Source of the DNA: a virus
Lineage: Duplodnaviria; Heunggongvirae; Uroviricota; Caudoviricetes
Strand: one strand, 5' to 3'
Length of the DNA: 11,013 nucleotides
IMG/VR virus record: IMGVR_UViG_2778261708_000011
Shown here: piece after piece, positions 3,338-3,685 of the stretch
Numbering within the stretch: position 1 is the stretch's first letter
Layout of the letters: each line of letters opens with the position of its first letter
Translations under genes and position numbers: made by a program
Notes under the pieces: generated by a model
What the model was told of the DNA's origin: nothing
Databases searched by the model: none
What the model saw: only the letters and a program-made list of their open reading frames with translations

Positions 3338-3493
3338 TTACTCCTCAGGTTCGTAAGCTGTGAAGACAGCGACCTCCGTCTGGCCGGTTCGGATTCGTAC
3401 CTCGCAGAGGTCTTTCCTCGTTACCAGTGCCGTCACTATGACGATTAAACAGATGACGATCAGGGCGATTAACATCGCCTTTTGCTGCTTCAT
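3338..3493 (-). CDS. hokD: Hok/Gef family membrane toxin (HokD/RelF-like)
   Basis: 51 aa MKQQKAMLIALIVICLIVIVTALVTRKDLCEVRIRTGQTEVAVFTAYEPEE: one transmembrane helix then the conserved Hok C-terminus. Near-identical to my recollection of K-12 HokD. SD AAGGAG 9 nt upstream. Confidence 0.85.
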   Translation of the reverse strand: MKQQKAMLIALIVICLIVIVTALVTRKDLCEVRIRTGQTEVAVFTAYEPEE

Positions 3494-3550
3494 AGCCTGC
3501 TTCTCCTTGACCTTTCGGTCCGTAAGAGGCAATCTATATGTGACGAGCAT
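3338..3550 (-). CDS. mok-like upstream reading frame, in frame with hok (19-codon N-terminal extension)
   Basis: ATG at 3550 with GAGG about 7 nt upstream, in frame with the hok ATG at 3493. Whether this start is used, or only serves translational coupling as mok does, cannot be told from sequence. Confidence 0.4.
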   Translation of the reverse strand: MLVTYRLPLTDRKVKEKQAMKQQKAMLIALIVICLIVIVTALVTRKDLCEVRIRTGQTEVAVFTAYEPEE

Positions 3551-3685
3551 ATAGGGGCCTCACTTCGATTTATAGTCGGGTGGGGCTTTTATCTATCTGC
3601 CGTTGGTGTTCATGCCCGAGGCAGATAGCCTCAAGCACCCGCAGCAATCCTACTTAACTCTGCCGTTACAGCAAACCGTTTTCGC

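Follow-up and report, generated by a model that had tools for sequence, protein, structure and literature searches.

A complete hok/mok/sok toxin-antitoxin module, as read from sequence, beside the adhesin gene paa in an O157-type lambdoid prophage

Transcription of Sok, its instability, and the RNase III-mediated repression of hok have been shown for plasmid R1, for hokW-sokW (PMC8621323), and for mokC/sokC (bioRxiv 10.1101/510842). In the R1 hok mRNA, a metastable structure has been described, A70-G71-C72 acts as the mok anti-Shine-Dalgarno (anti-SD) sequence, and a 3′ hairpin protects the truncated mRNA (PMC9841398). The hokW-sokW locus of Escherichia coli O157:H7 is a functional type I toxin-antitoxin system dependent on both RNase III and Hfq. 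Treatment with mitomycin C depletes SokW, HokW (whose toxicity was shown experimentally) builds up in the inner membrane, and the locus promotes lysis and the release of phage, which falls by half when the locus is lost; mutations in the −10 element of the sokW promoter release HokW toxicity (PMC8621323). On the K-12 chromosome, SokC RNA, expressed from a C-initial −10 element (CACTCT), has been detected by northern blot and double-stranded RNA capture (bioRxiv 10.1101/510842). Strains of O157:H7 are rich in such loci, with 13 hok genes in one count (PMC1635323, Table 2) and 12 in EDL933 and 14 in Sakai in another (PMC2887945).

Here, we analyzed an 11,013-nt stretch of viral DNA (IMG/VR record IMGVR_UViG_2778261708_000011), referred to in its entirety as the window, in which the original prediction had placed a hok/mok toxin locus at 3338-3640, with its Sok antisense RNA still to be located. 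The locus is an ordinary complete copy of the known hok/sok RNA-controlled toxin-antitoxin module, carried by an O157-type lambdoid prophage beside the adhesin gene paa. From sequence and homology, we put the probability that it forms a complete hok/mok/sok type I toxin-antitoxin cassette of ∼430 bp (window ∼3243-3674) and a prophage module at roughly 85%. The extent first proposed proved too narrow, since the functional cassette spans the region from the hok promoter (∼3674) to the end of the terminator (∼3243), while the remaining sequence statements were correct. Cassette homology with hokW-type loci starts at ∼3682 and ends at 3244-3250.

The cassette lies in the early-right/nin region of the prophage, with the moron paa on one side and the DUF968-RusA-Q genes on the other. 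On the minus strand, the gene order of the window is repressor/cro-like, DnaT-like O, P, DUF1627, paa, hok, a small phage open reading frame (ORF), DUF968, RusA, Q, and three tRNAs. The flanking landmarks are as follows.

3829-4587: paa, the upstream neighbor of hok (SBP_bac_11; annotated "AcfC family adhesin Paa")
3822-3809: terminator-like hairpin belonging to paa (terminator scan)
783-1478: Q, placed by the minus-strand gene order of the window

The terminator-like hairpin of paa makes hok a separate unit of transcription. As anticipated, the ORF list holds no relBE-like ORF upstream of hok up to 3829, and the upstream gene is paa. A mechanically called ORF at 2892-3299 on the minus strand overlaps the hok terminator; this overlap was dismissed as spurious, as only the last 66 aa match a phage family. 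The hok region shares 99.4 to 99.7% identity with "PPompW" prophages of O157:H7 and with copies on the chromosomes of many EHEC and EPEC genomes, the records of which name the toxin "HokD" or "gef." Over its entire length, the window is 96.6% identical to prophages of the O55:H7/O157 lineage. We found the paa-hok junction in ∼570 of 5,426 complete E. coli genomes and the allele, at ≥99% identity, in 526 records; genomes with this allele carry hok loci at 2 to 10 places each.

The two reading frames of the cassette are arranged as in K-12 mokC and hokC, which share one common stop codon.

3338-3493, minus strand: hok toxin gene, 51 aa, ATG at 3493-3491 and stop codon at 3340-3338 (Pfam HOK_GEF)
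3338-3550, minus strand: mok reading frame, 70 aa, in frame with hok, N terminus MLVTYRLPLTDRKVKEKQA (ORF list)
3558-3561, minus strand: mok SD sequence GAGG, 7 nt upstream of the ATG at 3550, entropy of 0.04 bits

The Hok ORF is thus intact, as had been claimed, and matches PF01848 (HOK_GEF) over profile positions 1 to 42 of 42 with 75.9 bits (cutoff, 22; E = 1.7e−21). Toxicity of the product would be expected from its near-identity to HokW and HokD; RefSeq labels the same sequence "type I toxin-antitoxin system toxin HokD." The in-frame, mok-like upstream ATG was likewise borne out, at 3550-3548, with a 70-aa Mok running through hok, and PHROG 251 ("MokW-like host killing") matches its product (1.7e−31). 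An overlapping upstream mok frame with its own SD, the arrangement that marks the family, is therefore present at the sequence level, and translational coupling is predicted. Among close relatives, the frame of mok relative to hok flips, which suggests, in line with published views, that it is the translation of mok that matters, not its peptide.

Both promoters of the family are non-consensus, and homology was used for this reason to place them; a consensus sigma-70 scan of 3150-3900 on both strands was uninformative and returned zero promoters. The signals delimiting the hok mRNA are listed below.

3669-3674, minus strand: −35-like element of the hok promoter, TTGCTG, 16 bp upstream of the −10 element (putative, read from sequence)
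3647-3652, minus strand: −10 element of the hok promoter, TAGGAT, with the transcription start at ∼G3640 (alignment register with other hok loci)
3246-3640, minus strand: full-length hok mRNA, ∼395 nt (start of the Rfam match at 3640; terminator at 3269-3243)
3243-3269, minus strand: intrinsic terminator of the hok mRNA, hairpin at 3269-3252 with a 7-bp stem (5 G-C pairs) and tail TTGTTTTTTC, T-run to 3243

The −10 hexamer aligns in register with TAGAAT (hokW, Rac442), TATAAT (hokC), TAGGAT (hokB), and TATGAT (R1 type), and its end lies 7 nt upstream of where the Rfam match starts. This match, to RF01794, covers 3640-3491 on the minus strand and the model from end to end (1 to 157 of 157), with 103.9 bits (gathering score, 59; E = 3e−23); the model is named "sok" yet describes the leader of hok on the sense strand, up to and including the hok AUG. 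Together with the HOK_GEF match, this signal is far beyond chance. The terminator scan also upheld the strong terminator of the original prediction.

Alignment with the R1-type, hokW-sokW, hokC, hokB, and K-12 hokD loci and RNA folding located the ucb, tac, and fbi elements that the original prediction had proposed to seek, as well as dcb. These elements and the predicted helices are the following.

3629-3640, minus strand: tac, GGGUGCUUGAGG, the first 12 nt of the mRNA, partner of fbi in the full-length fold and of ucb in the 3′-truncated fold
3612-3638, minus strand: metastable 5′ hairpin of the nascent transcript (fold of the first 35 nt), counterpart of that described for R1
3593-3628, minus strand: leader stem-loop with a 9-bp stem, CUAUCUGCC (3628-3620) against GGCAGAUAG (3601-3593), found in all three folds reaching past nt 48
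3582-3590, minus strand: ucb/anti-SD, AAAAGCCCC, homologous to R1 A70-G71-C72, pairing with the mok SD (full-length fold) or tac (truncated fold)
3526-3530, minus strand: dcb, GCCUC, predicted partner of the mok SD once the 3′ end is processed (nt 80-84 against nt 111-115 in the truncated fold)
3309-3330, minus strand: 9-bp 3′-UTR hairpin of the full-length and truncated folds, predicted protector of the 3′ end of the processed mRNA, corresponding to the protective hairpin of R1
3276-3288, minus strand: fbi, CCUCAACGCACCC, 12 bp with one bulge against tac, entropy of 0.03 bits

Minimum free energy (MFE) folds, which are predictions, were computed at three stages of the life of the RNA. The first 35 nt would form an 11-bp hairpin (−18.8 kcal/mol; z = −5.0) that cannot coexist with either the tac-fbi or the tac-ucb pairing. 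The full-length 395-nt RNA (3640 to 3246; −160.6 kcal/mol; z = −6.2) is predicted to be closed by the 5′-3′ helix tac-fbi, with the mok SD (3561-3557) paired with GCCCC of ucb (3586-3582) and thus sequestered. For the processed RNA, we removed the last 57 nt, leaving nt 1 to 338, to mimic the known 3′ processing at a site assumed by analogy. In this truncated fold, tac nt 1-8 switch to ucb nt 53-59, with the same single internal mismatch as in the pairing of R1 G4-C5-U6 with A70-G71-C72 (PMC9841398), and the mok SD switches to GCCUC of dcb (3530-3526), which belongs to a GCCTCTT block that is invariant in 59 relatives. In silico, the folds reproduce on this sequence the full mechanism described for R1 (PMC9841398).

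Covariation in the relatives supports the hok mRNA fold. The set comprised 59 non-redundant cassettes from Escherichia, Kluyvera, Citrobacter, Pantoea, Erwinia, and Photorhabdus, each <96% identical to any already chosen, onto whose alignment the MFE structure of the window was projected. Paired cells amounted to 88.5%, versus 40 to 44% in controls with partners slid by 1 to 3 columns, a control somewhat favorable to the structure because this derives from one of the aligned sequences. Double-sided changes occurred at 51 pairs, and none of 500 shuffles reached the observed values. The leader stem of the original prediction is real, being the core of a conserved helix (9 pairs; 96.2% paired; 3 with double-sided, compensatory changes), and the 3′-UTR hairpin (helices 18 and 19) is 96 to 97% paired, also with compensatory changes. 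In the ucb/SD hairpin (helix 5), the other strand of which is the Sok terminator hairpin, four pairs switch between A-U, G-C, and C-G. The tac-fbi helix is 88 to 93% paired, and alignment columns 4 and 438 hold U-A in 42 relatives and C-G in 12. Lack of complementary 5′/3′ fold-back elements had been named as what would mark the locus as an unregulated remnant; tac (3640-3629) and fbi (3288-3276) are complementary and covarying, and the locus is therefore not a remnant like K-12 hokD. Within the family, tac (mean entropy of 0.09 bits among close relatives), ucb, SD, fbi, and the hok coding sequence are nearly invariant, and neighboring positions vary freely. Variation among close relatives peaks at 3542-3556, the most variable stretch of the cassette: these 15 nt encode the putative Sok 5′ tail and the region around the mok AUG that it targets, and their entropy is 0.95 to 1.31 bits versus ≤0.16 for the functional boxes. 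This variability is consistent, in line with published views, with a Sok specificity of its own in each paralogous copy.

On the plus strand, homology points to a Sok antisense gene at ∼3542-3596.

3507-3512, plus strand: −35 element of the Sok promoter, TTGACC, aligned with R1 TTGCGC, sokW TTGCCT, and sokC TTGACC
3530-3535, plus strand: −10 element of the Sok promoter, CAATCT, after a 17-bp spacer, in register with the R1, sokW, sokC, and sokB promoters
3542-3596, plus strand: predicted Sok antisense RNA, ∼55 nt, ends placed by analogy

The TTGACC proposed originally as an antisense −35 element is the homologue of the Sok −35 element in the alignment of R1-type, hokW-sokW, hokC/sokC, and hokB/sokB loci. 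The accompanying statement that no convincing −10 element exists did not hold, as the homologous one is CAATCT, 17 bp downstream; its match to TATAAT at only 2 of 6 positions explains both why it was missed and why the consensus scan came out empty. By inspection, the alternative −10 candidates AATCTA, TATATG, and CTATAT near 3530-3545 were rejected, since they either are without A2 or T6 or stand at a spacer of ≥21 bp. The promoters of the family compare as follows.

Sok promoter, R1 type: TTGCGC, spacer 17, TATCCT
Sok promoter, hokW: TTGCCT, spacer 17, TAACCT
Sok promoter, Rac type: TTGACC, spacer 18, TAATCT
Sok promoter, hokC: TTGACC, spacer 17, CACTCT
Sok promoter, hokB: TTGCCG, spacer 17, TAAGAT
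Sok promoter, window: TTGACC (3507-3512), spacer 17, CAATCT (3530-3535)

In a survey of 127 related loci from IMG/VR and GTDB genomes, the TTGCCT-17-TAACCT class accounted for 56, the window class (TTGACC-17-CAATCT) for 21, TTGACC-18-TAATCT for 16, and the hokC class (TTGACC-17-CACTCT) for 8; TAATCT served as the −10 element in 28. A at position 2 (−11) and T at position 6 (−7) are present in 127/127 loci and are both kept in CAATCT, although conservation of these hexamers is confounded, the −35 element overlapping the hok SD region and the −10 element overlapping dcb and mok codons. In the window and hokC classes, an extra A that improves the −35 element co-occurs with loss of the T at −12, restoring the 17-bp spacer. 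The RefSeq K-12 sokC feature starts 6 nt before the complement of the mokC ATG, and by this analogy we placed the Sok start at G3542; the 3′ end (∼3596) was placed by analogy with the 3′ end of SokC and the R1 Sok primers (PMC1635323). The RNA so delimited is predicted to fold like annotated SokC and SokB, with a ∼9-nt single-stranded 5′ tail, a long hairpin, and then UUUUAUCU (−21.4 kcal/mol; z = −4.6). The R1 Sok RNA is described as the product of a strong promoter; the RNA encoded here could be weakly expressed, given the 2/6 match of its −10 element and the C at −12.

These same promoter features lend themselves to another reading, in which the cassette is complete in structure and nonetheless a silent or decaying neutral passenger, either with a Sok promoter crippled by the C at −12 combined with negligible hok expression or with a subtle change that prevents hok activation. 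The poor consensus match (2/6), the failure to detect a consensus promoter, and the reported inactivity of several similar-looking chromosomal hok loci of K-12 (PMC1635323) speak in its favor. We nevertheless consider it unlikely, as no IS element, frameshift, or deletion is present, and all pairing elements and the ORF are intact and nearly invariant in relatives whose neighboring positions vary. Moreover, the hokC loci of different Escherichia species keep the promoter type TTGACC-17-C-A-x-x-x-T, which yields detectable SokC, and the allele persists at ≥99% identity in hundreds of genomes. Control of Hok in trans by the Sok RNAs of other copies, which would make its own Sok dispensable, is suggested by the several hok loci per genome with this allele (2 to 10 places; 12 to 14 hok genes in O157:H7) and is very improbable, since the Sok 5′ tail/target segment at 3542-3556 is the most variable part of the cassette, the Sok hairpin differs from the sokW type by a 24-nt indel, and chromosomal Sok RNAs of K-12 do not neutralize R1 hok (PMC9841398). 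The weakest alternative, to which we give practically no weight, is an unregulated remnant like K-12 hokD (relF), that is, a hok ORF without mok, sok, and 5′ leader, any expression of which would come from transcription running on from the upstream gene: the RefSeq name "hokD" and the same prophage position upstream of DUF968, RusA, and Q point to it, and the alignment refutes it, because K-12 hokD matches only ∼3507-3244, whereas the window has the whole 150-nt leader with RF01794 end to end and a terminator-like hairpin between paa and hok.

In the mechanism that we propose for a complete and regulated cassette, for which we infer sufficient Sok transcription from CAATCT, the precise ends of the RNAs, 3′ processing, toxicity, and the biological role, the weak promoter TTGCTG-16-TAGGAT would, on the R1 and hokW paradigms, give rise to a stable hok mRNA of 395 nt starting at G3640, whose nascent 5′ end would be trapped in the metastable hairpin during synthesis. 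In the complete mRNA, the in silico folds suggest that tac would pair with fbi and ucb would mask the mok SD, so that the RNA would be neither translated nor bound by Sok. Slow 3′ trimming would remove fbi and allow formation of the tac-ucb pairing and the SD-dcb hairpin, rendering the RNA translatable, with Hok synthesis presumably coupled to translation of mok. Following the same paradigms, a short unstable Sok RNA (∼3542-3596, plus strand) made from TTGACC-17-CAATCT and perfectly complementary to the mok SD/start region would block mok translation and trigger RNase III decay. If Sok synthesis stopped or Sok were depleted, the stable processed mRNA would be translated into the 51-aa membrane toxin Hok, which would kill or lyse the cell. 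The benefit to the prophage is likely, by analogy with hokW-sokW, maintenance (addiction) and/or help with lysis on induction; a role in addiction, lysis, or phage exclusion would be an extrapolation from other loci, among which hokW-sokW is the best experimental guide. A bolder idea, which we hold to be improbable, is that the retuned Sok promoter (better −35 element, TTGACC; weaker −10 element with C at −12) and a diverged Sok 5′ tail orthogonal to ∼12 other hok/sok copies make the cassette, placed after paa, a dedicated addiction or lysis-timing module stabilizing a prophage that carries a virulence gene.

The locus is already known in kind, as Rfam, Pfam, and PHROG models recognize this copy, the sister prophage locus has been characterized experimentally, and the multiplicity of hok in O157:H7 has been reported; a literature search for a paper on this paa-linked copy found none. 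Beyond annotation, the results add nothing new to hok/sok biology. For annotation, the open point on Sok is closed, with the predicted Sok gene, tac, ucb, dcb, and fbi now located. The putative Sok RNA gene at ∼3542-3596 (plus strand) is unannotated in the genome records examined for this allele, none of which lists a Sok feature, and the RefSeq label "HokD" is misleading for this allele. By its sequence, this hok is not a K-12 hokD-like orphan but part of a fully equipped, probably regulated toxin-antitoxin module that might help to retain the prophage or to lyse the cell on induction in EPEC/EHEC lineages positive for paa.

To compare the cassette with known systems, six comparators were fetched: an R1-type hok/sok, hokW-sokW of Stx2 phage I, a Rac-type phage copy with annotated mok and hok, a P1-like plasmid copy, K-12 hokC/mokC/sokC and hokB/mokB/sokB with their RefSeq ncRNA features, and K-12 relB-relE-hokD. 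A distant blastn search for R1 hok/sok in plasmids returned only P1-like and prophage-type copies. The R1-type locus was instead obtained by tblastn with a Hok sequence as the query, which it matched at 100% identity. The window aligns with the complete loci from the −10 element of the hok promoter through the terminator. All hallmarks of the hok/sok family open to a sequence or in silico test are present, namely, the Hok ORF, mok, leader, tac-fbi pairing, ucb/dcb switch, metastable hairpin, and Sok gene. K-12 relB-relE-hokD (relF, prophage Qin) has the same prophage position, upstream of DUF968, RusA, and Q, and is 98% identical in the hok coding sequence and the 3′ UTR, including fbi and the terminator. 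However, its homology runs only from ∼3507, the hok SD, to 3244, and it is without the mok start, Sok gene, ucb, tac, and hok promoter, having relBE instead, whereas the window has the full leader with paa upstream; a hok without mok, sok, and leader behind relBE is not what the window holds. The cassette shares with R1 hok/sok (parB) the mRNA length class (395 nt here), a mok that is in frame with hok in the fetched R1-type sequence too, and the order of genes and RNA elements: tac, metastable hairpin, ucb, mok SD, mok, Sok promoter inside mok, dcb, hok, 3′ hairpin, fbi, and terminator (PMC9841398). It differs in nucleotide identity, which is only ∼42%, in the Sok −10 element (CAATCT here; TATCCT in R1), in a −35 element (TTGACC) closer to consensus than the R1 TTGCGC, and in its prophage rather than plasmid location; for the toxins, 44% identity has been reported between R1 Hok and HokW, to which the Hok described here is closely related (PMC8621323). 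K-12 hokC/mokC/sokC (gef) resembles it in the Sok promoter (TTGACC, 17 bp, and a C-initial −10 element, CACTCT versus CAATCT here), the short Sok hairpin, and the in-frame mok, but is a core-chromosome locus, flanked by IS186 in K-12, with a cassette that is ∼68 to 71% identical. Likewise, hokW-sokW of the Stx2 prophage Sp5/933W is a prophage-borne hok/mok/sok cassette, 79 to 86% identical, with a nearly identical Hok and matching tac, 5′ stem, fbi, and terminator type. It departs from the copy described here in its Sok promoter class (TTGCCT-17-TAACCT), a sokW hairpin that is longer by a ∼24-nt indel, a Sok 5′ tail of unlike sequence, and its place elsewhere in the Stx2 phage, where the present copy follows paa.

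By sequence comparison, the hok/sok cassette is a mosaic, in which the segment at 3557-3590 has different affinities from the remainder. Outside the Sok-terminator hairpin, the nearest relative of the cassette is the hokW/Rac prophage type, whose own hairpin is 24 nt longer than that of the window. The short hairpin of the window (CACUUCGAUUUAUAGUCGGGUG, 3557-3590) is near-identical in some Photorhabdus copies and resembles that of Citrobacter and Kluyvera copies (loci compared: L119, L120, L125, and L132). As for the window as a whole, the top complete-genome matches belong to the O55:H7/O157 lineage at only 96.6% identity and differ from it by ∼360 bp in length, indicating that it derives from a related yet distinct prophage variant. 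The best full-coverage match to 3200-3900 is a giant-panda E. coli isolate (98.0%).

Two indels co-occur across classes in the Sok promoter (3507-3535, plus strand) when the window is compared with the Rac-type phage copy (L002), K-12 hokC (L005), hokW-sokW (L006), L036, and other loci. The first, an added A, improves the -35 element from TTGCC to TTGACC, and on its own leaves an 18-bp spacer. The second removes the T at -12, changing TAATCT to CAATCT or CACTCT, and both combined restore a 17-bp spacer.

No other part of the cassette varies nearly as much as the segment encoding the Sok 5′ tail and, on the opposite strand, its target around the mok AUG (3542-3556). Among 28 close relatives (identity of at least 75%), per-column variability reached 0.95 to 1.31 bits in this segment, as compared with 0.03 to 0.16 bits in tac, ucb, the SD, fbi, and the hok CDS. 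Pairing within the hairpin that this segment forms in the hok mRNA is preserved through double-sided changes. The variation looks like diversification of Sok specificity among paralogous copies. The Mok peptide sequence is evidently not conserved. The mok frame is that of hok in the window (3338-3550, minus strand), hokW, K-12 mokC, and the R1-type locus. The two frames differ in K-12 mokB (L008 523-730) and in the Rac442-type cassette (L002 1631-1844), which is 1 nt longer.

The following features flank the cassette.

323-572, minus strand: three tRNA genes (Arg-tct, Arg-tcg, and a CAT-anticodon Met/Ile2 type), just downstream of the antiterminator gene Q (783-1478)
2892-3299, minus strand: mechanical ORF of 135 aa overlapping the hok terminator
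3809-3822: terminator-like hairpin belonging to paa
3829-4587, minus strand: paa, AcfC-family adhesin with an SBP_bac_11 fold, a moron immediately upstream of hok/sok
5006-5317, minus strand: short ORF, phrog_29700, function unknown

Similarity of the 135-aa ORF to a phage family (phrog_1212) is confined to its final 66 aa, which places the true gene at ∼2892-3092. Stx-converting and related lambdoid phages typically carry tRNA genes just after Q. The short ORF at 5006-5317 exemplifies those found between DUF1627 and paa (4600-5320, minus strand), an interval annotated in the O157:H7 homologue (L001 3620-4153) as a fimbrial-protein pseudogene bearing a frameshift. A junction between paa and hok is present in ∼570 of the 5426 complete E. 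coli genomes. The O157:H7 PPompW prophages diverge from the window downstream of 3244, where they carry a Rem-like gene. In K-12 Qin, relBE occupies the position filled here by paa.
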